Notes under the pieces: model-generated
The model's database searches: none
What the model was told of the DNA's origin: nothing
What the model saw: only the letters and a program-made list of their open reading frames with translations
Shown here: positions 6,028 through 60,014 of the stretch, piece by piece
Layout of the letters: every line of letters begins with the position of its first letter
How positions within the stretch are numbered: position 1 is the first letter of the stretch
Source of the DNA: a phage
Direction: 5' to 3' (one strand)
Sequence record: PZ452598.1
Length of the DNA stretch: 64,000 nt
Made by a program: the position numbers and the translations under genes

Positions 6028-7710
6028 TTAAACCATTACAGTAAATCGACCAACTTTCTTCATTTGAAGATGCTGACCATATTCTTGCGGGTCATGGTCT
6101 TTATGCGAAATTATAAAAACGTTAGTGTTTTTCATTGAATTTATAATATTAGCTACACCTTTAATACCTTCGGCATCAAATGACCCATCAAACACTTCAT
6201 CAAGAATTAATGTACTAATACTAACACCAGATACGATAGAAGCAATATCACGCCAAGTAAATAAAAGAGCAATATCGATTCGTGCCTTTTCACCTTCACT
6301 AAATGAAGCATAACTAAAATCTTCACGACCACGGGATTTAATTGTCTCATTAAATTCTTCATCTAATGTAAACACATAATCCGCTTCCATTATTTTAAGA
6401 TAATGGTTAATCTGCTTATTAAATAATGGAATGTACTTTTTAATAATAGCACCTTTAATACCAGAATCTTTGAGCATATCAGTCAAAATTCCTCGGTGGT
6501 ATTTTTCCATTACTAAATTAGTTTTTGTCTTAACAATTTTATCAAGTTCTTCTTGAAGCAGTGCTATTTCATCAGCATGGTCAATAAACTCAGAAGATGC
6601 TTTTTCTATAGCCGCTTTAACTTTTTTAGCTTTATCTACTGCTGCGATCAGAGATTGCTTTTTATTGCGAATATCATTTGCCAACGACTGCTGGGTTTTA
6701 ATATTATCTCGGTATTCATCAACAAGAACTTTTAAATTATCACGATGTGTTGAAAGCTGTTCAAACGAATGTGTGCATTCAGAAACTTTATCTTTAATTT
6801 TAGAAACAACTTTATCACCGGAACTCAATTGTGACAAACAGGTTGGACATAATCCACCTTCGTGATACATATTAATGACTTTATTATACGAGTCAATTTT
6901 TGATTTAATTAAAAATGCTTCTTGACCGATTTTATTAAATGCATCAGTCGGGTCTTCGTCCAAAACAATATTAACTAATCTTTCGTTAGCTTCTTCTATT
7001 TCCGATTTTAGCGTTCTAGCTTCTTTTGCCAAATCATCATACATATTTTGTAGACGAGTAAGGTTGTCACCCGTTAATTTTTTCTGGCGTTCAACATTAT
7101 CATTATATATTTTAATTTGTTGGATAATACTATCTTTTTTAACATCAAGCACTTGGTTCTGCGAATTTAATTCACGTATTAGTGCTTTATTAAGCTTATC
7201 CATTTCAGCTAATGTTCCTACCTCAAGCAGGTCTTCCACAAGCTTTCTTCGCGCAGGGGTCGACAAACCCATGAAAGGGGTATACCCTGCTGTACCAAGG
7301 ACAACAATCTGCTTGAAACTGGCATATGACATTCCGATAAGCTGTTCAAATTCTGCTTGGAAATCTTTACTGCTGGCAGATTCATTAAGACGTGTACCGT
7401 TAACGGTGATTTCGAAAACGTTTGGTTTTTGTCCTCTTTTGATATAGTACTTTTTCTCATCATATTCCATCCACAGTTCAACTAAAAGTTCTTTCTTATT
7501 TGTGCTGTTTATTAATTGACCTTTCTTTACATCGCGAAATGGCTTACCAAAAAGCCCAAATGTGATGGCTTCTAGCATAGTAGACTTACCACCGCCATTT
7601 CGTCCAGTAATAAGAGTTTTTTGAACCTTATCTAATTGAATGTCAATCCCATTTTGACCAACTGACATTATATTTTTATATTTTACTCTATTAAGTTTAA
7701 AATTCTTCAC
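6028..7710 (-). CDS. 46: recombination nuclease subunit gp46 (Rad50/SbcC-like ATPase)
   Basis: 560-aa ORF with Walker A GRNGGGKST and long central coiled coil containing a CPTC hook-like motif. Length matches T4 gp46. Confidence 0.95.
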   Translation of the reverse strand: MKNFKLNRVKYKNIMSVGQNGIDIQLDKVQKTLITGRNGGGKSTMLEAITFGLFGKPFRDVKKGQLINSTNKKELLVELWMEYDEKKYYIKRGQKPNVFEITVNGTRLNESASSKDFQAEFEQLIGMSYASFKQIVVLGTAGYTPFMGLSTPARRKLVEDLLEVGTLAEMDKLNKALIRELNSQNQVLDVKKDSIIQQIKIYNDNVERQKKLTGDNLTRLQNMYDDLAKEARTLKSEIEEANERLVNIVLDEDPTDAFNKIGQEAFLIKSKIDSYNKVINMYHEGGLCPTCLSQLSSGDKVVSKIKDKVSECTHSFEQLSTHRDNLKVLVDEYRDNIKTQQSLANDIRNKKQSLIAAVDKAKKVKAAIEKASSEFIDHADEIALLQEELDKIVKTKTNLVMEKYHRGILTDMLKDSGIKGAIIKKYIPLFNKQINHYLKIMEADYVFTLDEEFNETIKSRGREDFSYASFSEGEKARIDIALLFTWRDIASIVSGVSISTLILDEVFDGSFDAEGIKGVANIINSMKNTNVFIISHKDHDPQEYGQHLQMKKVGRFTVMV

Positions 7711-21118: not shown

Positions 21119-21361
21119 TTATTCCTTAATTCCTAGTACTTGTTTAAAAGTCTCGTCGTAATCAAGACTTTGGCCCGTTTGTTCTTTATGCTTGTATATA
21201 ATATCACTTACTTCTGATAGCATATTTTTATATGAACGAGTTAAAGCAGATTTAAGCACGCTGTATCTATCAGGAAATTTACCGTGTTCATTATAATAAG
21301 CTATTGCTAATTCACGGACTGCCTTTTCAGCAGTCTCCATATATTCTTTACGCTTTGTCAT
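21119..21361 (-). CDS. hypothetical protein; start trimmed
   Basis: Track ORF 127 aa has an N-terminus overlapping the upstream gene. Plausible start is [15 protein letters not shown] (80 aa). Confidence 0.5.
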
Positions 21362-21662
21362 TTTCTTCTCGGTCAAATCGGTGTTTACAATGGCGACATT
21401 TATAACGAAGATTATTAGTCTGCCAATGGACCAATTGCACCTGTTCAGTTCCACATTCAGGGCAATTAGGAACGTTTTTAGAAGCCCTTTCGCGACGTTC
21501 AACCATGACCATTACAGAATCCCAATTAACAGGAGGGCTATAATCATCACAACCATAAATCTTTCCACGCATTTCCAGATCGTCTTCTTCACCAGCCATA
21601 ATAATTTTAATTAGACTAGAATTACTTGAAGCTGCAATGTCTTCTAATAGACGCTTTTTCAT
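21348..21662 (-). CDS. small zinc-ribbon protein
   Basis: 104-aa ORF with CPECG...CRHCKH cysteine pairs. Confidence 0.55.
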
Positions 21663-22585
21663 TTCAATACCTCAATAGCATTACGTAAACCATTTGCTTT
21701 GGCGGTTAAATCCTTAAGAACTTTAGTATGCTCTTCAATCTGTTTTTCAACTTCAATCAAACGGGTACTGAGATATTCGCGTTCTTCTTTCATAGTATCA
21801 TTCCCATGATTGGGCTTTGGCGTAGGTTTAAATTTATTAGGGTCCTTTAACTTAATAACAACTTTAGTTTCAAACAGTGAAAGACCATAATTCGTATTAT
21901 CATCAAAGGATTCAACTACGTCCATTTTAGACAATAACGTACGAAGATTATAAGTCAAAGAACGAATCGTTTTATTATGTTTATTAGCTTCACATGGTTT
22001 CATATATGGAAGATTTTTATATATTTCATGCGGAGCACAAACAATAATTAACAATTCAAATGGTCCATTCTGTGATGATGGAATGAATTTAGCCGTAACC
22101 CAATCTTTTACATTTACATTAATAGTACGATCATCGCCATGACAAAACAGTCTACGAGAATGCTTAAAAAGCATATTCACATTATTATTAAATTCGTGTG
22201 AAAACTCACTGGCAAATTTTTCTTTACTATCTTTAGAAAACCATTCTTCTAAATAAGTTCTTTTCACGTCGTTAATAATATTAAATGTAACAACATTATC
22301 ATTTGATACATTAGTCTCAATGTAGCTTGGATACATAAATTTTTTAACATTATTAACAGCTATCACAGAAGATAGTAATCGGGAACGTTTGAACCACTCG
22401 AGCAAAGAACCAAGAGAATGTGAATACGCATTTTGTGTATCTTTACAAATATGGTTTTCCCATCCAATATAGTCTAAAAAATCACGAAGAATATTATTGA
22501 TTACTTCTCTATGTCCTTTCTGATAATCACGATGTTTAGTAATAAGACTGTCAAAATAATCAATATAATGTTTACGAGTTTTCAT
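21659..22585 (-). CDS. paralog 1 of a 4-member tandem family; C-terminal coiled coil
   Basis: 308 aa. N-terminus MKTRKHYIDYF and a C-terminal roughly 40-aa heptad region shared with the three following ORFs. Confidence 0.7.
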   Translation of the reverse strand: MKTRKHYIDYFDSLITKHRDYQKGHREVINNILRDFLDYIGWENHICKDTQNAYSHSLGSLLEWFKRSRLLSSVIAVNNVKKFMYPSYIETNVSNDNVVTFNIINDVKRTYLEEWFSKDSKEKFASEFSHEFNNNVNMLFKHSRRLFCHGDDRTINVNVKDWVTAKFIPSSQNGPFELLIIVCAPHEIYKNLPYMKPCEANKHNKTIRSLTYNLRTLLSKMDVVESFDDNTNYGLSLFETKVVIKLKDPNKFKPTPKPNHGNDTMKEEREYLSTRLIEVEKQIEEHTKVLKDLTAKANGLRNAIEVLK

Positions 22586-22639
22586 GTTCTTCTCACTTGG
22601 TTAATGATTTATACTCCGAGCCATCCTTGGCTTTAAATT

Positions 22640-23641
22640 TTACTTAATTAACTGCAAAGCTTGTTCTAGACGATCAAGACGATTAACGGATTCTTCCCAA
22701 ATCTTTTTAGCCTGCTCATATTCTTTCTGCGCTTTATTAGAAATTTCTAGAACTTCTTTATAAGCTTTTTCTAGTGCAATAACTTCTGGACGAATTTCTA
22801 TCGGTTCAGGTGAATCATCAAGACATTCCATTAGTTCCTCAAGGGTAGTTTCTTCTTTAGGAGTATTCACAATTTCATCACATTTTTGTTGGTAAATTTC
22901 TTTACTAGTAGGTGAATAAGCACATTTCACTTCACGAAGGCTAATTACGAGTTTATATCCTTCCCAACCGCATATATTCTTAAAAGGATATGTATGAATA
23001 TTTTCTACTGTTTCCATACAAAGTAATGCGGTCTCTAATTGACGAGTTATAGTGCTAGCAATTGAGAAAAATTTATTAATATTCTTTTGGTTAGTTTCTG
23101 GTGTAAAAAATCCATAATTCACAAAAATAGATACTTTATTTTTATCAAGTTCATATTCTTTTATGATAATCATATCAGAAGCCAAAGGATGAATTTGACG
23201 ATAATCGCCATAACATAATTTAGAAGCTGATTTTAGAATTTGCTTCTTGAAAAGTCTGAAATTACTAATCCAACGACGAGTAAAAATATTCTCAGGGTCT
23301 TCTTTATTATTGAGATGATAAGAATTAACATCACCGAACCAATTATATCCTACTACATCTTTAGTTCGTTTAATTTCTTTCCCAAAATTACCAAGAATAT
23401 CCCGATTAACCAAATATGAAAGAAGACGAGACTCTTTAAAGGTTTTCTTGATAACATCTTTATCTACACGGCTAGAAATTTTACGAATTTCATGAATAAA
23501 TTTAGTAGAAGAAACAATACTTGCATCAACACTATTGAGCCACTGATTGATAATAGAAAGAACGCTATTTTGGCCAAACATCGGTATAGCTTTATCATCA
23601 ATAACGCTATTGAATGATTTGATATATTCGTTACGAGTCAT
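22640..23641 (-). CDS. paralog 2 of the tandem family; start trimmed
   Basis: Track ORF 350 aa reads through the promoter. Likely start MTRNEYIKSF with SD GAGGAG. Shares the motif FRLFKKQILKSASKL with paralog 3. Confidence 0.7.
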   Translation of the reverse strand: MTRNEYIKSFNSVIDDKAIPMFGQNSVLSIINQWLNSVDASIVSSTKFIHEIRKISSRVDKDVIKKTFKESRLLSYLVNRDILGNFGKEIKRTKDVVGYNWFGDVNSYHLNNKEDPENIFTRRWISNFRLFKKQILKSASKLCYGDYRQIHPLASDMIIIKEYELDKNKVSIFVNYGFFTPETNQKNINKFFSIASTITRQLETALLCMETVENIHTYPFKNICGWEGYKLVISLREVKCAYSPTSKEIYQQKCDEIVNTPKEETTLEELMECLDDSPEPIEIRPEVIALEKAYKEVLEISNKAQKEYEQAKKIWEESVNRLDRLEQALQLIK

Positions 23642-23659
23642 ATTAATCTCCTCAGTAGA

Positions 23660-23699
23660 AAGTAAGAACATTATACCACATCCTTGTGGCAAAGTAAAC
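23660..23699 (-). promoter_or_regulatory. T4-type early promoter
   Basis: Minus strand reads GTTTACTTTGCCACAAGGATGTGGTATAAT (-35 GTTTAC, extended -10 TGGTATAAT). Confidence 0.55.
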
Positions 23700-24721
23700 T
23701 AGTTCAGTGCATTTAGTGCATTGTTCAGTTTAGAACGTTGCTTTGTCAGATTTTGAACCCTTGACTGAGCTTGTTCTAACGCCTTTTCAGCTTCTAGCAC
23801 TTCATTGGTCGCTTTAACTAATTCAGCATCTACTGCCTTAAGAGACTTCTCAATCGCATCCGCGTGCCATTTTTCAACAGGTTTAAGACTTGGATTTTCA
23901 ACAGGAAGAAAATTCACTTTATTGAATTTCCATGCATCTTTATTACCTGAGCTATACATCCAAAATTTAGGATCGTTTGATAAGTAATTAGATAAATTTA
24001 AGTTATCTTGCACTTCTTGCTTTTTCTCTTGTGTGACTTCGTCCTTTCTCAAAAATTCATATTTAAATGAAACGATCATATCAAGTTCATATGATGTTGT
24101 ATCTAACTTAAATCGTTCAAAACGAGGTAAAATCTTAGATTGAACAGCAGCAACAACATCCATATACTTAAATGCTTCTGTCAACTGCGATTTAAGGCAT
24201 TCGCAAATTGAAAGAGAATTTTTTGTATTAGGTTTAAAGCTAATTCGTGCAGTTCTATTATTTTCTTTTAACGGTCTTACTTCCATCTGAAGAGTATAAC
24301 CATCAAATTTCAGATTCTTTAAGTTAATGTCAGAGCCTTTTAATCGACTAGCAGTAGACAAAATTTGCTTTAATTGTCTACGGAACAGAGCAATAAATCT
24401 CCATTCAATACGATAATGATTTGGATTGAAAAATCCAGATGATAAATCGACCTTACTTTGACCAACGCCTTGAACAAATAGAGGATTTTTATAATCAATA
24501 GTTTTACAGAAATCGGTGAGCTGTTCACGAGCAGTCATTTGAGTAATATACCCTGCTTTACTAAAATTACGCACCCATTCACTGCTATTCGTATACTTAA
24601 AGTGATGAATAACACGATTAACTTTATCAGGGTCTAAATTATTTTCACACAAAAATGTCATAACATCACGAGTATAGCTGGCATTACGAACCATATCTTC
24701 AATTTGAGAACGAGTTTTCAT
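23699..24721 (-). CDS. paralog 3 of the tandem family
   Basis: 340 aa. N-terminus MKTRSQIEDM, internal FRRQLKQILSTASRLKG, C-terminal coiled coil. Confidence 0.7.
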   Translation of the reverse strand: MKTRSQIEDMVRNASYTRDVMTFLCENNLDPDKVNRVIHHFKYTNSSEWVRNFSKAGYITQMTAREQLTDFCKTIDYKNPLFVQGVGQSKVDLSSGFFNPNHYRIEWRFIALFRRQLKQILSTASRLKGSDINLKNLKFDGYTLQMEVRPLKENNRTARISFKPNTKNSLSICECLKSQLTEAFKYMDVVAAVQSKILPRFERFKLDTTSYELDMIVSFKYEFLRKDEVTQEKKQEVQDNLNLSNYLSNDPKFWMYSSGNKDAWKFNKVNFLPVENPSLKPVEKWHADAIEKSLKAVDAELVKATNEVLEAEKALEQAQSRVQNLTKQRSKLNNALNALN

Positions 24722-24729
24722 GGTGTTCC

Positions 24730-25620
24730 TTAAGATTTAAGTAAATCAACAATTTTAATTAACTTTTCACGCTCAGATTTAGCTTTACTACTCAATCCAG
24801 ATAGTCTGAAAATTTCATCATCATATTGTTGAATAGAAATATTCAGCTCTTCAATTTGCTTATTAAAATAATCAATTTGTTCAGAATGTTTTTCGTTACT
24901 ACGAACTGGTACAGGTTTTGTAGGCAATTTAGTTGAACTGGATTCATTCGGGCGATAAATTAAAATGCAATTTGAACCAATCGGGCATTTAGCACCAGAT
25001 GAATATTCTAACGTTCCAGCTTCTTTTAAAACTTCAAAAGCTAAACAGAGATGATGCCCCATATTAACATAATCAGTAGAGCGAGCTCTGATGTAATAAT
25101 CATCTCCACGAGTGCTAAATTTAAAGCATTTAAGGTCTTCTGTATTATTAGTTTTAAAAATCATTTGTTTATCTAGACCTTTAGCCAATCGAGCACCTAA
25201 TGCTAATAATCGTCGTTGATTTTCCCACAAATCTGCGATCATTTGGTCAAATGATAATTTCGGCATTAGCCGACCATAAAGGTCATATCCTTTATTATAA
25301 TTGCGAAGGATTTCACTCGCATTAATACGAGACAACGCTCCAATTTTATTAAGGGCTTTCATAATACGATTAGATAAACTCATTCCAGACCCGTTTGTTC
25401 GCTGTAAATGTTTTTCTAATCCAAATCCAATATCAACTTTAAATTTATCTAAAATTTCAGCATGAACATCTCTGTCAATAACATTCAAATCCAAAGTTGG
25501 GTTAAATCTATGAAAAAATTTATCTGGCTCTCCACGACGTAAAACAGTCCATTCATTCATCATTTTTTTATTAACTAAAGATTTAATTACTGCGTTGACA
25601 TTATTAATTACTACTGACAT
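24730..25620 (-). CDS. paralog 4 of the tandem family; start trimmed
   Basis: Track ORF 304 aa uses a GTG start. ATG at 25620 (MSVVINNVN) has SD AGGAAAAT. Shares QRRLLALGARLAKG and a C-terminal coiled coil. Confidence 0.65.
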   Translation of the reverse strand: MSVVINNVNAVIKSLVNKKMMNEWTVLRRGEPDKFFHRFNPTLDLNVIDRDVHAEILDKFKVDIGFGLEKHLQRTNGSGMSLSNRIMKALNKIGALSRINASEILRNYNKGYDLYGRLMPKLSFDQMIADLWENQRRLLALGARLAKGLDKQMIFKTNNTEDLKCFKFSTRGDDYYIRARSTDYVNMGHHLCLAFEVLKEAGTLEYSSGAKCPIGSNCILIYRPNESSSTKLPTKPVPVRSNEKHSEQIDYFNKQIEELNISIQQYDDEIFRLSGLSSKAKSEREKLIKIVDLLKS

Positions 25621-25627
25621 ATTTTCC

Positions 25628-26029
25628 TCACTCAATTTTACCAATTACGCGGAATAAGATTGAACAGACTATATAAGTACCACATATAGATTGAACTAAT
25701 GCCATTCCAAAGAACCAAACAATATTATCAAACCATGTCTGTTTTACGTCGAAAGGACGTAAACTTACAGTAATATTATCACCTTTTTCTATTGAAGAAT
25801 ACATCTCTGGGGAAATATATTCACTAAATCTATAACCGTCTTTGAGTTCATATACAGCAATAAACGATAAACTAGACCCCTTTCCTTGAGTTCCTGTAAG
25901 GGTATTAACTACAGTAACATCATAATCTTTATAATGCATATAATCATTAATTGCGTAATAACCATATGCAATTACTATACATAAACAACATATCAATAAA
26001 TTCAATCTTTTAATTATCAACTGTTTCAT
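25628..26029 (-). CDS. membrane protein
   Basis: 133-aa ORF with N-terminal and C-terminal hydrophobic helices. Confidence 0.6.
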   Translation of the reverse strand: MKQLIIKRLNLLICCLCIVIAYGYYAINDYMHYKDYDVTVVNTLTGTQGKGSSLSFIAVYELKDGYRFSEYISPEMYSSIEKGDNITVSLRPFDVKQTWFDNIVWFFGMALVQSICGTYIVCSILFRVIGKIE

Positions 26030-26084
26030 AATAATCTCAATTAAAAGGGCTTAGAACCATTATACCATCCTTGGTATAAAGCGG

Positions 26085-26612
26085 TTATGCGAGTACCGTA
26101 TTTAACCGTTCTTCAAACTTCCGAAGAGTGTTCTGGCGTTCAGCTCTTTGCTTTTTGTAAGTTTCAATACGCTCTGAAATGAGAGTGTATCGTTCATTTA
26201 CTGATTCTTTCATAAAATCAGGAATTTCACGAGAAGCTTTAATCTCGTCAAATTTATCAATAACAGCTTGCTCTTCAGCAATTAAGTTATCATACATCAA
26301 AATATCTTTCTTGATGAACTCAATATCTTCTTGAGTTACACGAGATAATTTAGATGCTTTATCCTTTTTGTACTGTTCGTTAGTATCACGAGACCAGTGT
26401 AATGTACGATTTTTATTCGTATTCTTGTAAATTTCTACAATACCAATCTCATCGATAATAACGATCCAATTCCAACGGGATTTGTAAATTTGTCCTCCAT
26501 TAACAGTGATTTCACCTCCGATTGAGATGTCATTAAAGAACTTGCTTTGTGCTTCTGATTTAAATTTACCATCGTTGTAATTTACCAGGTTGAAAATATC
26601 TTTAGCGTTCAT
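26085..26612 (-). CDS. hypothetical protein; start trimmed
   Basis: Track ORF 190 aa reads through the promoter/leader. ATG MNAKDIFNLV follows SD GGAGGAA. Confidence 0.6.
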   Translation of the reverse strand: MNAKDIFNLVNYNDGKFKSEAQSKFFNDISIGGEITVNGGQIYKSRWNWIVIIDEIGIVEIYKNTNKNRTLHWSRDTNEQYKKDKASKLSRVTQEDIEFIKKDILMYDNLIAEEQAVIDKFDEIKASREIPDFMKESVNERYTLISERIETYKKQRAERQNTLRKFEERLNTVLA

Positions 26613-26629: not shown

Positions 26630-26672
26630 TTGATAGTTGTATAGTACCACAGCTCAAACGGAAAGTAAACCG
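26630..26672 (-). promoter_or_regulatory. T4-type early promoter with conserved leader
   Basis: Minus strand reads GTTTACTTTCCGTTTGAGCTGTGGTACTATACAACTATCAACTACGGAGGAA. Confidence 0.55.
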
Positions 26673-26708
26673 GTAAAATGAAAAAAAGTCTCCCGAAGGA
26701 GACTAATG

Positions 26709-53900: not shown

Positions 53901-54040
53901 GTAAATTAATGAGTCCTTTATTTGATGCATCTGGAACAACATTTGCGCAATTTAGAGATTTAGTTAATAAACGTCTAAAAGATAATATAGGAAATCCAAG
54001 AGACCCTGAAAATCCAACACAGGTTAAAATAGATGAATGA
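50942..54040 (+). CDS. 7: baseplate wedge protein gp7
   Basis: 1032-aa ORF. Length and position match T4 gp7. Confidence 0.95.
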   Translation: MTVKAPSVTSLRISKLSANQVQVRWDDVGANFYYFVEIAETKTNSGENLPSNQYRWINLGYTANNSFFFDDADPLTTYIIRVATAAQDFEQSDWIYTEEFETFATNAYTFQNMIEMQLANKFIQEKFTLNNSDYVNFNNDTIMAALMNESFQFSPSYVDVSSISNFIIGENEYHEIQGSIQQVCKDINRVYLMESEGILYLFERYQPVVKVSNDKGQTWKAVKLFNDRVGYPLSKTVYYQSANTTYVLGYDKIFYGRKSTDVRWSADDVRFSSQDITFAKLGDQLHLGFDVEIFATYATLPANVYRIAEAITCTDDYIYVVARDKVRYIKTSNAPIDSDPLSPTYSERLFEPDTMTITGNPKAVCYKMDSICDKVFALIIGEVETLNANPRTSKIIDSADKGIYVLNHDEKTWKRVFGNTEEERRRIQPGYANMSTDGKLVSLSSSNFKFLSDNVVNDPETAAKYQLIGAVKYEFPREWLADKHYHMMAFIADETSDWETFTPQPMKYYAEPFFNWSKKSNTRCWINNSDRAVVVYADLKYTKVIENIPETSPDRLVHEYWDDGDCTIVMPNVKFTGFKKYASGMLFYKASGEIISYYDFNYRVRDTVEIIWKPTEVFLKAFLQNQEHETPWSPEEERGLADPDLRPLIGTMMPDSYLLQDSNFEAFCEAYIQYLSDGYGTQYNNLRNLIRNQYPREEHAWEYLWSEIYKRNIYLNADKRDAVARFFESRSYDFYSTKGIEASYKFLFKVLYNEEVEIEIESGAGTEYDIIVQSDSLTEDLVGQTIYTATGRCNVTYIERSYSNGKLQWTVTIHNLLGRLIAGQEVKAERLPSFEGEIIRGVKGKDLLQNNIDYINRSRSYYVMKIKSNLPSSRWKSDVIRFVHPVGFGFIAITLLTMFINVGLTLKHTETIINKYKNYKWDSGLPTEYADRIAKLTPTGEIEHDSVTGEAIYEPGPMAGVKYPLPDDYNAENNNSIFQGQLPSERRKLMSPLFDASGTTFAQFRDLVNKRLKDNIGNPRDPENPTQVKIDE

Positions 54041-55037
54041 TTCAAGTGTTATCTATCGTGCGATAGTTACTTCAAAATTTAGAACAGAAAAAATGTTGAA
54101 TTTTTATAATTCAATTGGAAGTGGTCCGGATAAAAACACTATCTTTATCACATTTGGAAGATCAGAACCGTGGTCATCAAATGAAAATGAGGTGGGCTTT
54201 GCCCCACCTTATCCAACCGATTCTGTATTAGGCGTAACTGACATGTGGACGCATATGATGGGAACAGTAAAAGTTCTTCCATCAATGCTTGATGCTGTTA
54301 TTCCTCGCAGAGATTGGGGAGATACTAGATATCCGGATCCATACACATTTAGAATTAACGATATTGTAGTGTGTAACTCAGCTCCTTACAACGCTACTGA
54401 ATCAGGCGCTGGTTGGTTAGTGTATCGTTGTTTAGATGTTCCTGATACCGGAATGTGTTCAATAGCATCTTTAACTGATAAAGATGAATGCCTTAAGTTA
54501 GGTGGAAAATGGACTCCTTCTGCTAGGTCAATGACTCCGCCTGAAGGTCGAGGAGATGCTGAAGGAACAATTGAACCCGGAGACGGGTATGTGTGGGAAT
54601 ATCTATTTGAGATTCCGCCTGATGTATCTATAAATAGATGCACGAATGAATATATCGTGGTTCCTTGGCCTGAGGAATTAAAAGAAGACCCGACTAGATG
54701 GGGATATGAAGATAATCTCACTTGGCAACAAGATGATTTTGGATTAATTTACCGTGTTAAGGCAAATACTATCCGTTTTAAAGCATATTTAGATTCAGTT
54801 TATTTTCCTGAAGCTGCATTGCCAGGAAATAAAGGATTTAGACAAATATCAATAATCACGAATCCTCTTGAAGCTAAAGCTCATCCAAATGACCCAAACG
54901 TTAAAGCTGAAAAGGATTATTATGACCCAGAAGATTTAATGAGGCATTCGGGTGAAATGATTTATATGGAAAATAGGCCACCTATTATTATGGCAATGGA
55001 TCAAACAGAAGAAATCAATATTCTGTTTACATTTTAA
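54033..55037 (+). CDS. 8: baseplate wedge protein gp8
   Basis: 334-aa ORF. Length and position match T4 gp8. Confidence 0.95.
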   Translation: MNDSSVIYRAIVTSKFRTEKMLNFYNSIGSGPDKNTIFITFGRSEPWSSNENEVGFAPPYPTDSVLGVTDMWTHMMGTVKVLPSMLDAVIPRRDWGDTRYPDPYTFRINDIVVCNSAPYNATESGAGWLVYRCLDVPDTGMCSIASLTDKDECLKLGGKWTPSARSMTPPEGRGDAEGTIEPGDGYVWEYLFEIPPDVSINRCTNEYIVVPWPEELKEDPTRWGYEDNLTWQQDDFGLIYRVKANTIRFKAYLDSVYFPEAALPGNKGFRQISIITNPLEAKAHPNDPNVKAEKDYYDPEDLMRHSGEMIYMENRPPIIMAMDQTEEINILFTF

Positions 55038-55042
55038 ATTAA

Positions 55043-55060
55043 GGGAGCCCATGGGCTCCC
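55043..55060 (+). terminator. rho-independent terminator 3' of gene 8
   Basis: Perfect palindrome gggagcccatgggctccc followed by ttttt. Confidence 0.7.
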
Positions 55061-55068
55061 TTTTTCTT

Positions 55069-55076
55069 TATAAATA
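55069..55076 (+). promoter_or_regulatory. late promoter core TATAAATA for gene 9
   Basis: Plus-strand tataaata 25 nt upstream of the gene 9 ATG, just after the terminator. Confidence 0.65.
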
Positions 55077-55100
55077 CTATAAACTCATAAGGAAACCGCT

Positions 55101-55967
55101 ATGTTCATTCAAGAACCAAAGAAATTGATTGATACCGGCGAAATTGGTAACGCTTCTACTGGTGATATCTTATTCGACGGTGGTAATAAAATTAATAGTG
55201 ATTTTAACGCAATTTATAATGCGTTTGGCGATCAGCGTAAAATGGCAGTAGCAAATGGCACTGGAGCAGATGGTCAAATTATCCATGCTACTGGATATTA
55301 TCAAAAACACTCTATTACAGAGTACGCAACTCCAGTGAAAGTTGGCACTAGACATGATATTGATACCTCTACTGTAGGTGTTAAAGTTATCATTGAAAGA
55401 GGCGAACTCGGCGATTGTGTTGAATTCATTAACTCTAATGGATCAATATCAGTTACTAATCCTTTGACAATTCAAGCTATTGATTCAATTAAAGGTGTTT
55501 CAGGTAATTTAGTAGTAACTAGCCCATATAGTAAAGTTACTTTACGCTGTATTTCATCTGATAATTCTACGTCGGTTTGGAATTATTCTATTGAAAGTAT
55601 GTTTGGACAAAAGGAATCACCAGCTGAAGGTACATGGAATATTTCTACATCTGGATCAGTTGACATTCCATTATTTCATCGTACTGAATACAATATGGCT
55701 AAATTGCTAGTTACGTGCCAATCGGTAGATGGAAGAAAAATTAAAACAGCAGAAATAAATATTCTTGTGGATACTGTTAATTCAGAGGTAATTTCTTCTG
55801 AATATGCTGTCATGCGAGTTGGGAATGAAACCGAAGAAGACGAAATCGCTAATATTGCATTTAGTATTAAAGAAAATTATGTAACGGCGACTATAAGTTC
55901 TTCAACTGTCGGTATGAGAGCAGCAGTTAAAGTTATCGCTACGCAGAAAATCGGGGTGGCTCAATAA
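55101..55967 (+). CDS. 9: baseplate wedge / long-tail-fibre socket protein gp9
   Basis: 288-aa ORF. Length and position match T4 gp9. Confidence 0.95.
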   Translation: MFIQEPKKLIDTGEIGNASTGDILFDGGNKINSDFNAIYNAFGDQRKMAVANGTGADGQIIHATGYYQKHSITEYATPVKVGTRHDIDTSTVGVKVIIERGELGDCVEFINSNGSISVTNPLTIQAIDSIKGVSGNLVVTSPYSKVTLRCISSDNSTSVWNYSIESMFGQKESPAEGTWNISTSGSVDIPLFHRTEYNMAKLLVTCQSVDGRKIKTAEINILVDTVNSEVISSEYAVMRVGNETEEDEIANIAFSIKENYVTATISSSTVGMRAAVKVIATQKIGVAQ

Positions 55968-57775
55968 TGAAACAAAATATTAATATCGGTAATGTTGTAG
56001 ATGATGGTACCGGTGACTACCTGCGTAAAGGTGGTATAAAAATAAATGAAAACTTTGATGAGCTTTATTATGAACTCGGTGATGGTGATGTTCCATATTC
56101 AGCCGGTGCCTGGAAAACTTATAATGCTTCATCAGGACAAACATTAACAGCAGAATGGGGAAAATCATACGCTATTAATACATCTTCTGGAAGAGTGACT
56201 ATAAATCTTCCAAAGGGTACAGTTAATGATTACAACAAGGTAATTAGAGCTAGAGACGTATTTGCTACATGGAACGTCAACCCAGTTACACTAGTAGCTG
56301 CTTCCGGCGATACGATTAAAGGGTCTGCAGTACCAGTTGAAATTAATGTTCAATTCAGCGATTTAGAACTAGTGTATTGTGCCCCAGGACGTTGGGAATA
56401 TGTCAAAAATAAACAAATTGACAAAATTACCAGTTCAGACATTAGTAATGTAGCTCGCAAAGAATTTTTAGTTGAAGTTAAAGGACAAACAGACTTTTTA
56501 GATGTTTTCCGTGGAACTAGTTATAATGTAAATAACATCAGAGTAAAACATCGTGGTAACGAATTGTATTACGGCGATGTGTTTAGCGAAAACAGCGATT
56601 TTGGCTCTCCAGGCGAAAATGAAGGAGAACTGGTTCCTCTTGATGGATTTAACATTCGATTAAGACAGCCTTGTAATATTGGTGACACTGTTCAAATTGA
56701 AACATTTATGGATGGTGTATCACAGTGGAGAAGTTCATATACAAGACGTCAAATTAGATTGTTAGATTCAAAATTAACGTCAAAAACTTCTTTAGAAGGA
56801 AGCATTTACGTTACTGATTTATCAACAATGAAATCAATTCCATTTTCTGCTTTTGGATTAATTCCAGGAGAACCTATTAATCCTAACTCTCTTGAGGTTC
56901 GTTTTAACGGGATTTTACAGGAATTGGCTGGCACAGTTGGAATGCCATTATTTCATTGTGTTGGTGCCGATTCAGACGATGAAGTAGAATGCTCTGTTTT
57001 AGGTGGAACTTGGGAACAATCTCATACCGATTATTCAGTTGAAACTGATGAAAACGGCATACCAGAAATTTTACATTTCGATAGAGTATTTGAGCATGGT
57101 GACATTATCAATATCACCTGGTTTAATAATGATTTGGGTACATTATTAACAAAAGATGAGATTATTGATGAAACTGATAATCTCTATGTATCGCAAGGAC
57201 CTGGAGTAGATATTTCTGGTGATGTAAATTTAACAGACTTCGATAAAATTGGTTGGCCAAATGTAGAAGCAGTTCAATCTTATCAACGCGAATTTAATGC
57301 TGTTTCAAATATCTTTGATACGATTTATCCTATTGGAACTATATATGAAAACGCTGTTAATCCAAATAACCCTGTTACATATATGGGATTCGGCTCATGG
57401 AAATTATTTGGGCAAGGAAAAGTTTTAGTTGGATGGAATGAAGATATTTCGGACCCTAACTTTGCTCTAAATAACAACGATTTAGATTCGGGTGGAAATC
57501 CTTCACATACCGCAGGTGGAACAGGTGGTTCTACTTCTGTTACATTGGAAAATGCTAATCTTCCTGCAACTGAAACAGATGAAGAAGTTCTAATAGTTGA
57601 TGAAAATGGATCAGTCATTGTTGGTGGGTGTCAATACGATCCAGATGAATCCGGTCCAATTTACACTAAATACCGTGAAGCTAAAGCATCTACTAACTCT
57701 ACTCACACTCCGCCAACATCAATAACTAACATTCAACCATATATTACAGTTTATCGTTGGATAAGGATTGCATAA
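55967..57775 (+). CDS. 10: baseplate wedge protein gp10
   Basis: 602-aa ORF. TAATG overlap with gene 9. Confidence 0.95.
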
Positions 57776-58434
57776 TGAGTTTACTTAATAATAAAGCGGG
57801 AGTTATTTCCCGCTTAGCCGATTTTCTTGGTTTTAGACCTAAAACTGGCGACATTGATGTAATGAATCGTCAATCAGTCGGGTCAGTGACAATATCTCAA
57901 TTAGCGAAAGGATTTTATGAACCAAACATAGAATCAGCTATTAATGACGTTCATAATTTTTCTATAAAAGACGTTGGCACAATTATTACTAATAAAACTG
58001 GTGTTTCTCCTGAGGGTGTTTCTCAAACTGATTATTGGGCATTTTCTGGAACTGTAACAGACGATTCTCTTCCTCCGGGTTCTCCTATTACGGTATTAGT
58101 ATTTGGTCTTCCAGTTTCAGCAACAACTGGAATGACGGCAATTGAGTTTGTTGCAAAAGTTCGCGTTGCACTACAAGAAGCTATTGCGTCATTTACTGCT
58201 ATCAATTCATATAAAGACCATCCAACTGATGGTAGTAAATTAGAAGTTACTTATTTAGATAATCAAAAACATGTATTAAGCACATATTCTACATATGGAA
58301 TAACTATTTCCCAAGAAATTATATCTGAGTCTAAGCCTGGCTATGGTACATGGAATTTATTGGGCGCACAAACTGTAACTTTAGATAATCAGCAGACTCC
58401 TACAGTATTTTATCATTTTGAGAGAACAGCATGA
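57775..58434 (+). CDS. 11: baseplate wedge protein gp11
   Basis: Track ORF 225 aa; start trimmed to MSLLNNKAG (219 aa), which overlaps the gene 10 stop. Confidence 0.9.
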
Positions 58435-60014
58435 GTAATAATACATATCAACACGTTTCTAATGAATCTCGTTATGTAAAATTTGATCCTACCGATACGA
58501 ATTTTCCACCGGAGATTACTGATGTTCAGGCTGCTATAGCAGCCATTTCTCCTGCTGGAGTAAATGGAGTTCCTGATGCATCGTCAACAACAAAGGGAAT
58601 TCTATTTCTTGCCACTGAACAGGAAGTTATAGATGGAACTAATAATACCAAAGCAGTTACACCAGCAACGTTGGCAACAAGATTATCTTATCCAAATGCA
58701 ACTGAAACTGTTTACGGATTAACAAGATATTCAACCAATGATGAAGCCATTGCCGGAGTTAATAATGAATCTTCTATAACTCCAGCTAAATTTACTGTCG
58801 CCCTTAATAATGCGTTTGAAACGCGAGTTTCAACTGAATCCTCAAATGGTGTTATTAAAATTTCATCTCTACCGCAAGCATTAGCTGGTGCAGATGATAC
58901 TACTGCAATGACTCCATTAAAAACACAGCAGTTAGCTATTAAATTAATTGCGCAAATTGCTCCTTCTGAAACCACAGCTACCGAATCGGACCAAGGTGTT
59001 GTTCAATTAGCAACAGTAGCGCAGGTTCGTCAGGGAACTTTAAGAGAAGGCTATGCAATTTCTCCTTATACGTTTATGAATTCATCTGCTACTGAAGAAT
59101 ATAAAGGCGTAATTAAATTAGGAACACAATCAGAAGTTAACTCGAATAATGCTTCTGTTGCGGTTACTGGCGCAACTCTTAATGGTCGTGGTTCTACGAC
59201 GTCAATGAGAGGCGTAGTTAAATTAACTACAACCGCCGGTTCACAGAGTGGAGGCGATGCTTCATCAGCCTTAGCTTGGAATGCTGACGTTATCCACCAA
59301 AGAGGTGGTCAAATTATCTATGGAACACTCCGCATTGAAGACACATTTACAATAGCTAATGGTGGAGCAAATATTACGGGTACCGTCAGAATGACTGGCG
59401 GTTATATTCAAGGTAACCGCATCGTAACACAAAATGAAATTGATAGAACTATTCCTGTCGGAGCTATTATGATGTGGGCCGCTGATAGTCTTCCTAGTGA
59501 TGCTTGGCGCTTCTGCCATGGTGGAACTGTTTCAGCGTCAGATTGTCCATTATATGCTTCTAGAATTGGAACAAGATATGGCGGAAACCCATCAAATCCT
59601 GGATTGCCTGACATGCGTGGTCTTTTTGTTCGTGGTTCTGGTCGTGGTTCTCACTTAACAAATCCAAATGTTAATGGTAATGACCAATTTGGTAAACCTA
59701 GATTAGGTGTAGGTTGTACCGGTGGATATGTTGGTGAAGTACAGAAACAACAGATGTCTTATCATAAACATGCTGGCGGATTTGGTGAGCATGATGATTC
59801 TGGGGCATTCGGTAATACCCGTAGATCAAATTTTGTTGGTACACGTAAAGGACTTGACTGGGATAACCGTTCATACTTCACCAATGACGGATATGAAATT
59901 GACCCAGAATCACAACGAAATTCCAAATATACATTAAATCGTCCTGAATTAATTGGAAATGAAACACGTCCATGGAACATTTCTTTAAACTACATAATTA
60001 AGGTAAAAGAATGA
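58431..60014 (+). CDS. 12: short tail fibre protein gp12
   Basis: 527-aa ORF with repetitive Thr/Ala/Gly-rich N-terminal fibre region and C-terminal receptor-binding domain. Confidence 0.95.

Follow-up and report, generated by a model that had tools for sequence, protein, structure and literature searches.

Four consecutive minus-strand genes of phage T4, nrdC.3, nrdC.4, nrdC.5 and nrdC.6, form a tandem array of old paralogues. They lie in a 64,000-nucleotide stretch of phage DNA from sequence record PZ452598.1 (the window, to which all coordinates refer unless another record is named), and positions 21300-26100 of this window are 100% identical to several phage T4 records. The genes are most likely ancient tandem duplicates that are non-essential and transcribed early. 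We propose that they encode four early, oligomeric, non-enzymatic counter-defence proteins acting on host defence sensors, a reading to which we assign a rough probability of 0.55. That the genes are annotated, that they sit in separate Pfam and PHROGs families and that nrdC.5 has a counter-defence phenotype was already known. New here are the evidence for one superfamily, its domain architecture, the pattern of a conserved scaffold and coiled coil combined with a variable ββαββ domain, and the lineage-specific copy number.

RefSeq lists the four genes under these names, each as 'hypothetical'. An earlier reading made from the letters of the DNA (the sequence-only reading) had described four minus-strand genes, and the open reading frames (ORFs) are found exactly where it placed them. 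The nrdC.3 ORF spans 21659..22585 on the minus strand and encodes 308 amino acids (aa); its closest paralogue, nrdC.4, spans 22640..23641 (minus strand, 333 aa) and starts at an ATG at 23641 after a GAGGAG ribosome-binding site. nrdC.5, the published anti-Dsr1 counter-defence gene, spans 23699..24721 (minus strand, 340 aa), and nrdC.6, the most diverged paralogue yet the most conserved between phages, spans 24730..25620 (minus strand, 296 aa). Good ribosome-binding sites precede all four starts. The array is flanked by nrdC.2 and nrdC.7, and the wider neighbourhood extends from endonuclease VII, pin and nrdC at one side through to rI and tk. No fifth paralogue was found elsewhere in the window, where the sole other match is a coiled-coil ORF at 6028-7668.

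The paralogues are mutually ~20% identical, and pairwise BLASTP gives a single significant pair, nrdC.3 and nrdC.4 (E 0.002, 23.6% identity over 271 collinear aa); the other five of the six pairs are insignificant. Family profiles were built from homologues of nrdC.4, nrdC.5 and nrdC.6 from a 5.8-billion-protein collection and from nrdC.3 alleles in phage genomes, and were compared by hhalign. This comparison links nrdC.3 to nrdC.4 with a probability of 98.4% (E 5e-15), nrdC.4 to nrdC.5 with 88% (E 3e-6, 236 collinear columns) and nrdC.3 to nrdC.5 with 74% (E 3e-5). Both nrdC.3 and nrdC.4 align full-length to nrdC.5. PHROGs likewise joins nrdC.3 (E 8e-101) and nrdC.4 (E 6e-168) in one family, phrog_1435, and gp057, the single copy in phage F48, bridges two families by matching the hidden Markov models (HMMs) of nrdC.5 (4e-10) and nrdC.4 (1.5e-8).

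The profile alignments pair the same two motifs throughout. The internal motif noted in the sequence-only reading, FRRQLKQILSTASRLKGSD in nrdC.5 (aa 113-131, 24329..24385, minus strand), recurs in all four proteins, with minus-strand equivalents at 23204-23260 in nrdC.4, 22130-22192 in nrdC.3 and 25171-25227 in nrdC.6. A second common motif, absent from that reading, follows the pattern F-K-x-S-R-L-L-S...F and occurs in the versions FSKAGYITQMTAREQLTDF, FKESRLLSYLVNRDILGNF, FKRSRLLSSVIAVNNVKKF and LNKIGALSRINASEILRNY. The nrdC.5 version, FSKAGYITQMTAREQLTDF, covers aa 53-71 (24509..24565, minus strand), and its minus-strand equivalents in the profile alignments lie at 23384-23440 in nrdC.4, 22337-22393 in nrdC.3 and 25297-25353 in nrdC.6. 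The merged alignment of nrdC.3, nrdC.4 and nrdC.5 (38 sequences) is invariant at T3, R4 and three phenylalanines; F53 and F71 are invariant. The shared N-terminus stood in part: M(K)TR, listed earlier for three proteins, is common to nrdC.3, nrdC.4 and nrdC.5 and is absent from nrdC.6.

To compare architecture, we generated AlphaFold2 (AF2) models of nrdC.5 (model ma50c6b3f0944, predicted local distance difference test (pLDDT) score 70.7) and nrdC.6 (model m878a04af7196, pLDDT 78.5) and matched them by order of elements; for nrdC.3 and nrdC.4 the architecture was taken from their full-length alignment to nrdC.5. From helix H46 of nrdC.5 onward, the secondary-structure elements of the two models correspond one-to-one. 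The first half consists of N-terminal helices, a helix pair, short strands and another helix pair; the internal motif sits on this second pair, at H105-115/H117-128 in nrdC.5 and H124-133/H135-145 in nrdC.6. The second half contains a β-hairpin, a helix and another β-hairpin (ββαββ), followed by a low-confidence linker and a long C-terminal helix. The predicted build common to the four proteins thus starts with an N-terminal helical domain and two conserved helix pairs, continues with a variable ββαββ domain and a disordered linker, and ends in a conserved C-terminal coiled-coil helix; linker and coiled coil make up about one fifth of each protein.

Sequence alone joins nrdC.6 to the other three less firmly. 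Against each single family the nrdC.6 profile scores weakly in hhalign (P 0.01-0.085), and these alignments are collinear and always pair the same motifs. A broader nrdC.3/4/5 profile was therefore prepared by adding distant single-copy relatives, and the C-terminal helix was cut from both sides because coiled-coil composition could otherwise drive the match. This helix-less profile matches the globular part of nrdC.6 at P 2.8e-5 (probability 74%, 78 columns), pairing residues 46-142 of nrdC.5 with 83-160 of nrdC.6. The match spans both motifs and aligns FRRQLKQILSTASRLKG to QRRLLALGARLAKG at the internal one; it is the weakest sequence link within the putative superfamily. Foldseek searches of BFVD with the nrdC.5 and nrdC.6 models recover two common remote proteins from T4-like phages, each with probability 1.0: A0A2Z4QAR2 of Klebsiella phage Mineola (8.7e-8 for nrdC.5 and 7.3e-4 for nrdC.6) and A0A1V0DXL6 of Yersinia phage fHe-Yen9-01 (1.9e-5 and 9.5e-4, respectively). 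The structure prediction and Foldseek checks that the sequence-only reading had called for are thus concordant for nrdC.5 and nrdC.6, both in element order and in remote matches. The nrdC.6 model further matches proteins of 300-335 aa from T4-like phages of Pectobacterium, Enterobacter and Acinetobacter. Two of these, E5E4A2 and E5E4A1 of Acinetobacter phage Acj61 (304 and 330 aa), match at E 2e-4 and 3e-3, and their consecutive accessions suggest that tandem copies may exist in distant Acinetobacter T4-like phages too. Enterobacter phage IME523 gp085 matches both the nrdC.6 HMM (5.9e-9) and the nrdC.5 HMM (1.5e-5). We considered it as a clean bridge between the two families and down-weighted it, as hhalign showed the match to be carried mostly by the C-terminal helix.

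The heptad region at the C terminus, also claimed earlier for all four proteins, held up in a shuffling test. In each whole protein the best heptad window is the C-terminus, with 75-92% hydrophobic residues at the a and d positions, and 0-7 of 2000 shuffles equal it. The helix covers aa 267-308 of nrdC.3 (21662..21787, minus strand; 83% hydrophobic at a/d, reached by 1 of 2000 shuffles), aa 286-333 of nrdC.4 (22643..22786, minus strand; found by the same heptad test) and aa 284-340 of nrdC.5 (23702..23872, minus strand; 92% hydrophobic, 0 of 2000 shuffles). The corresponding element of nrdC.6 is a helical hairpin at aa 243-296 (24733..24894, minus strand; 7 of 2000 shuffles). AF2 predicts a single helix at 284-339 in nrdC.5 and helices at 243-272 and 278-295 in nrdC.6. 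All four proteins end in L-x-x-[AI]-[LIV]-x-x-L-[KN], and this helix is the most conserved segment within the nrdC.3 and nrdC.4 families and among the most conserved in nrdC.5 and nrdC.6. It also occurs in chimeric proteins. In one of these (P0234, 173 aa) an unrelated N-terminal part precedes a stretch of ~65 residues that is almost the same as the C-terminal helix of nrdC.5. Another (P0120, 299 aa) has an nrdC.4-type Pfam domain, yet 37% of its length matches nrdC.5 with 94% identity. In such chimeras the C-terminal helix acts as a portable module.

Two alternatives to common descent have to be weighed against these data. The shared motifs could be chance matches among unrelated AT-rich phage genes, as the insignificance of five of the six BLASTP pairs would allow; this is scarcely credible, because profile-profile, HMM-bridging, structure-prediction and synteny evidence are concordant and the profile similarity is significant. 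For nrdC.3, nrdC.4 and nrdC.5 the hhalign family comparison rules it out. Alternatively, nrdC.6 might be no true paralogue and share with the others only the portable coiled-coil module, gained through recombination or convergence, on an unrelated globular part. The weak single-family scores of nrdC.6 fit this, as do the helix-borne IME523 bridge and the mobility of the module, seen on a different N-terminus in P0234; moreover, a search of 1.84 billion representative proteins with the nrdC.3/4/5 profile gave 18 matches, none of them from the nrdC.6 family. We nevertheless judge it improbable. The 78-column match persists when the C-terminal helix is removed, and in each AF2 model it maps to the corresponding helix pairs, after which all elements follow in matching order; in addition, Foldseek aligns the nrdC.6 model across more than 300 columns with proteins also matched by nrdC.5. 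All four genes are thus very probably homologous, and profile alignment, structure order and synteny bear out the tandem family of four old paralogues that the sequence-only reading had proposed.

Copy number across T4-like genera ranges from one to four. Most Tequatrovirus members carry nrdC.6, nrdC.5, nrdC.4 and nrdC.3; Mosigvirus JS09 has the nrdC.6, nrdC.5 and nrdC.3 types; Dhakavirus and Gaprivervirus have the nrdC.6, nrdC.5-like and nrdC.4 types; and Marfavirus F48, Jiaodavirus JD18 and Kanagawavirus IME523 have one copy in the same syntenic place. In F48, JD18 and IME523 the gene of ~257 aa that lies upstream of the single copy was tested and does not belong to the family. Within Tequatrovirus, LYE-01 (locus L025) lacks nrdC.4. 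Phage ACG-C40 (L007, 6802-7213) keeps nrdC.6 and a remnant in which the nrdC.5 N-terminus is joined to the C-terminal 69 residues of nrdC.3. The nrdC.5 slot of Ec_YwIITB1 (L024, 3938-4779) is occupied by ORFs of 180 aa and 86 aa, the latter related to the nrdC.5 C-terminal helix. Alleles of nrdC.3 fall into classes of at least 90%, ~60% and ~56% identity among otherwise close phages. Between T4 and close Tequatroviruses, synonymous divergence (dS) is ~0.5-1.3 in nrdC.2 and nrdC.3 (21348-22585) versus ~0.1-0.25 in the flanking genes; in pairs whose flanking genes have a dS of ~0.1-0.2, that of nrdC.3 and nrdC.2 is ~1. The raised dS points to allele replacement by recombination, leaving a mosaic patch. 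The array does lie in a variable region, as the sequence-only reading had it: related phages differ in copy number and alleles, and the survey of presence and absence across T4-like genomes that it suggested reveals, besides the one to four copies, deletions, allele swaps and chimeras. The only repeat that a DNA search found among the paralogues is a 19-base match at the start codons of nrdC.3 and nrdC.5, and nothing pointed to recent duplication or to gene conversion among them. The duplications are therefore ancient rather than ongoing.

By tblastn, the array genes occur in 554-742 of 50,697 phage records, all T4-like, with nrdC.6 in 742, and a search for related loci with the nrdC.6 alignment returned close relatives only. 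As judged from these sequence searches, the superfamily is confined to T4-like phages. We then compared rates of evolution, using gene-wide ratios of nonsynonymous to synonymous substitution (dN/dS; Nei-Gojobori). These are 0.16-0.34 for nrdC.3, nrdC.4 and nrdC.5, except for 0.82 in a near-identical nrdC.3 pair with a dS of 0.02, and 0.04-0.16 for nrdC.6; the core neighbours nrdC, gene 49 and tk give ~0-0.03. The nrdC.3-nrdC.6 genes evolve faster than core genes. The family had earlier been called diversifying, and this holds in that dN/dS exceeds that of core genes; in the sense of positive selection it is not shown by the gene-wide values, which stay below 1. Within families, identity is lowest in the ββαββ domain and highest in the motif-bearing helices and the C-terminal helix. 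The ββαββ domain retains an identity of 0.20-0.32 in diverged subsets of nrdC.4, nrdC.5 and nrdC.6 and 0.59 among three nrdC.3 sequences. For diverged nrdC.4 relatives, the last 24 residues are 82% identical versus 32-49% elsewhere and 32% in the ββαββ domain. Raised dN/dS relative to core genes, varying copy number, deletions, replacements and chimeras together give the array its accessory character.

The function of one member has been published. Srikant, Guegler and Laub evolved T4 on toxIN cells and obtained a clone with compensating deletions that no longer infected Escherichia coli ECOR17 (eLife 2022, 11:e79549; PMC9391042). Disruption of dsr1 in ECOR17 restored infection, plasmid-borne dsr1 protected MG1655 against the evolved clone, and the T4 deletion clone plated again on E. 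coli carrying Dsr1 when nrdC.5 was supplied in trans (PMC9391042). The defence protein Dsr1 is a SIR2 NADase. According to a 2026 preprint, its TPR sensor, which E. coli Dsr1 has in common with Avs7, is triggered by the phage major capsid protein, and the capsid protein of ZL19 was identified as a trigger of EcDsr1 (PMC12803255). The sequence-only reading had named no described function for any of the four genes, which the 2022 report of the anti-Dsr1 role overturns; its guess at anti-defence is borne out by experiment for one member, nrdC.5 (PMC9391042). Our literature search found no mechanism or later name for NrdC.5, nothing on nrdC.3, nrdC.4 or nrdC.6, and no mention of DUF7235, PF26897 or PF26899. 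The list of direct-binding inhibitors of NAD+-linked defences in a 2026 paper does not mention NrdC.5.

These observations lead to a model of array function. The proteins would be made before host sensors meet late phage proteins, that is, before the capsid protein appears. The C-terminal coiled coil may assemble them into oligomers, and the variable ββαββ domain, presented by the conserved helices, would bind a host defence protein and block its activation. Absent domains, the absence of a PDB relative and invariant positions that are hydrophobic save for the N-terminal Thr-Arg indicate that the proteins are most likely non-enzymatic. A direct-binding mode is suggested because enzyme features are absent, and stoichiometric inhibition would be its simplest form. 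The target of nrdC.5 would be Dsr1, with an outcome analogous to that of DSAD1 on DSR2. By analogy, nrdC.3, nrdC.4 and nrdC.6 would most likely target other defence proteins or other variants of them; given the published action of nrdC.5 against Dsr1, they are good candidates for similar roles. Paralogy, architecture, the variation pattern and the early-promoter context come from the present analysis, and the counter-defence role comes only from the genetics of nrdC.5.

Several points weigh against this proposal. Its sole experimental link to defence is genetic complementation by nrdC.5 (PMC9391042), and gene-wide positive selection is not seen (dN/dS 0.04-0.34, one pair 0.82). nrdC.6 is under strong purifying selection (dN/dS 0.04-0.16) and is the most widely kept member, which suits a conserved housekeeping partner no less than a defence target; part of its sequence link to the family also depends on the C-terminal helix, a region in which the composition of a coiled coil may pass for homology. 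The main rival is accordingly an indirect or housekeeping role, which the conservation of nrdC.6 suits particularly well. The paralogues would then form a host-takeover or metabolic-modulation family that binds conserved host or phage proteins, and NrdC.5 would beat Dsr1 indirectly, for example via NAD+ supply, capsid-protein availability or Dsr1 stability. Complementation would look the same under such a scheme, no paper found by the literature search reports a mechanism, and the array lies among the nucleotide-metabolism genes nrdC, nrdD, nrdG and tk. Even so, neither Pfam nor NCBIfam detects a domain for catalysis or metabolite binding, T4 can do without the genes on laboratory hosts, some phages have lost them naturally, and the pairing of a variable domain with a conserved scaffold is seen more typically in proteins that antagonise variable targets. 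We regard both the takeover role and the indirect route to Dsr1 as appreciable possibilities, though not the likely ones. It is very improbable that NrdC.5-like proteins are instead enzymes that rebuild NAD+ or destroy a signal in the manner of NARP pathways. Dsr1 does work by NAD+ depletion, and phage NAD+ reconstitution pathways counter it (PMC13464706), but the proteins resemble no enzyme family in Pfam, NCBIfam or PDB sequences, their invariant positions are hydrophobic except for the N-terminal Thr-Arg, and about one fifth of each consists of linker and coiled coil.

The proposed counter-defence role has precedents of several kinds. Srikant et al. (PMC9391042) described one of the four array genes as early, non-essential and accessory; nrdC.5 was treated there alone, without structure, family relationship or mechanism. 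DSAD1, an inhibitor of DSR2 from SPbeta-group phages, also neutralises a defence sirtuin NADase, and does so by binding and not by catalysis (PMC10981675, PMC11087589, PMC13464706). Its target differs, DSR2 being triggered by the tail tube protein. The likeness between DSAD1 and the NrdC proteins would be functional only, and no DSAD1-like entry appears among the fold matches. Within T4, the products of tifA, dmd, adfA, ipI and ipIII are likewise made early or injected; the phage can do without these genes on laboratory hosts but needs them on hosts that have a particular defence, and they too are lost by microhomology-mediated deletion. These are single small genes of unrelated sequence, whereas the nrdC array comprises four related proteins of 300-340 aa built on a common scaffold.

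A bolder and rather doubtful extension is that the array forms a modular 'anti-sensor' platform. The conserved scaffold and oligomerising coiled coil would display a hypervariable ββαββ domain, and each paralogue or allele class would neutralise a different capsid-sensing protein with a TPR sensor; the targets might, equally tentatively, include Dsr1 and Avs7-type sensors with other effectors. If true, the array would be the phage's repertoire against a matching family of host sensors, and the portable C-terminal helix might permit mixed oligomers. Although no lytic phage has been studied better than T4, the only role recorded among these four early proteins of 300-340 aa is the genetic phenotype of nrdC.5. 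Placing them in one family turns the single nrdC.5/Dsr1 observation into a testable family hypothesis and indicates which domain to swap or mutate. It also yields three candidate inhibitors of other defences; inhibitors of this kind help in understanding host range and in the engineering of T4-like phages for therapy.

A database hit assigning all four proteins to one characterised family, which would have refuted the sequence-only reading, does not occur. Pfam match tables place them under three separate accessions, PF26897 (nrdC.4 homologues), PF23882/DUF7235 (nrdC.5) and PF26899 (nrdC.6 homologues). The gathering cut-off of PF23882 (30 bits) is reached by nrdC.5 only, at 420.6 bits (E 5e-126); nrdC.3 scores 11.7 bits through its C-terminal helix only, and nrdC.4 and nrdC.6 have no match. 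The array genes are likewise spread over PHROGs 1435, 2351 and 2257, with nrdC.6 in 2257. These Pfam and PHROGs families thus already contain individual genes of the array; they differ from the superfamily described here in being three separate accessions each, with function unassigned, and only PHROG 1435 joins two genes. We found no known fold, solved relative or catalytic signature for the array proteins. Profile searches of PDB sequences found no relative, and scans of Pfam, NCBIfam and PADLOC gave, beyond the DUF7235 match of nrdC.5, only coiled-coil noise (Prefoldin, CENP-F, BrxC, LmuB). In the viral structure library, residues ~140-220 of the nrdC.5 model also align weakly and locally with tail completion, tail terminator and head-tail connector proteins (TM-scores of just 0.2-0.4 over ~110-130 columns, at E 0.002-0.03 and probability 0.96-0.99). 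These alignments are worth noting because defence sirtuins sense virion proteins, and they probably reflect a generic small α/β resemblance.

Homologues of nrdC.3-nrdC.6 bear the label 'thioredoxin' in many GenBank and UniProt records. None of the four proteins matches a thioredoxin or glutaredoxin domain in Pfam or NCBIfam, and the AF2 topology of nrdC.5 and nrdC.6 is unrelated to the thioredoxin fold. The label appears to be an artefact passed on from the gene name nrdC.x. A second correction concerns the reference T4 record. NC_000866/AF158101 (locus L001, 3481-4308) annotates nrdC.6 as a 275 aa protein with an unrelated C-terminus ending in IEELIFLFNNMMMKFSDYLD, whereas in the window (24730-24810 region) and in newer T4 records the protein has 296 aa and ends in the conserved helix RLSGLSSKAKSEREKLIKIVDLLKS. 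A frameshift error in the reference is the probable cause, and it would hide the coiled coil of nrdC.6. Both the widespread mis-annotation and the probably frameshifted reference gene can now be corrected.

Early expression fits the surroundings of the array. Pattern matching finds T4 early-type promoter-like sites on the minus strand directly upstream of nrdC.4 (23670..23698, GTTTACT...TGTGGTATAAT) and upstream of nrdC.8 (26641..26669, GTTTAC...TGTGGTATAAT); these matches are in keeping with early expression, and Srikant et al. termed nrdC.5 an early gene (PMC9391042). From the putative site at 26641..26669, nrdC.8, nrdC.7, nrdC.6 and nrdC.5 could be read in one stretch, with intergenic gaps of 7-57 bases. 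Between rI.-1 and this site lies a strong terminator-like hairpin, AGTCTCCTTCGGGAGACT followed by a T run (26687-26704, minus strand), which would separate the upstream transcription unit from nrdC.8-nrdC.5. Scans of both strands for Rfam families and tRNAs gave no matches.

The window itself derives from a T4 deletion variant. It lacks ~4.82 kb of the reference (NC_000866 ~53926-58745), comprising nrdC.9, nrdC.10, nrdC.11, mobD and mobD.1-mobD.5. The junction at 26636-26652 falls inside a 17-base direct repeat, GTTGTATAGTACCACAG, of which the reference has one copy upstream of nrdC.8 and one upstream of mobD.5, overlapping the -10 regions of early promoters. A deletion at GTTGTATAGTACCACAG is of the short-homology type described by Srikant et al. 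(PMC9391042), and the same junction is found in one piece in no T4 record of the phage collection. At the other end of the array, nrdC.2 (21348-21662, 104 aa) overlaps the nrdC.3 stop with its start and carries a zinc-ribbon signature at its C-terminus, with weak matches to several Zn-ribbon Pfam families (best E 1e-4).

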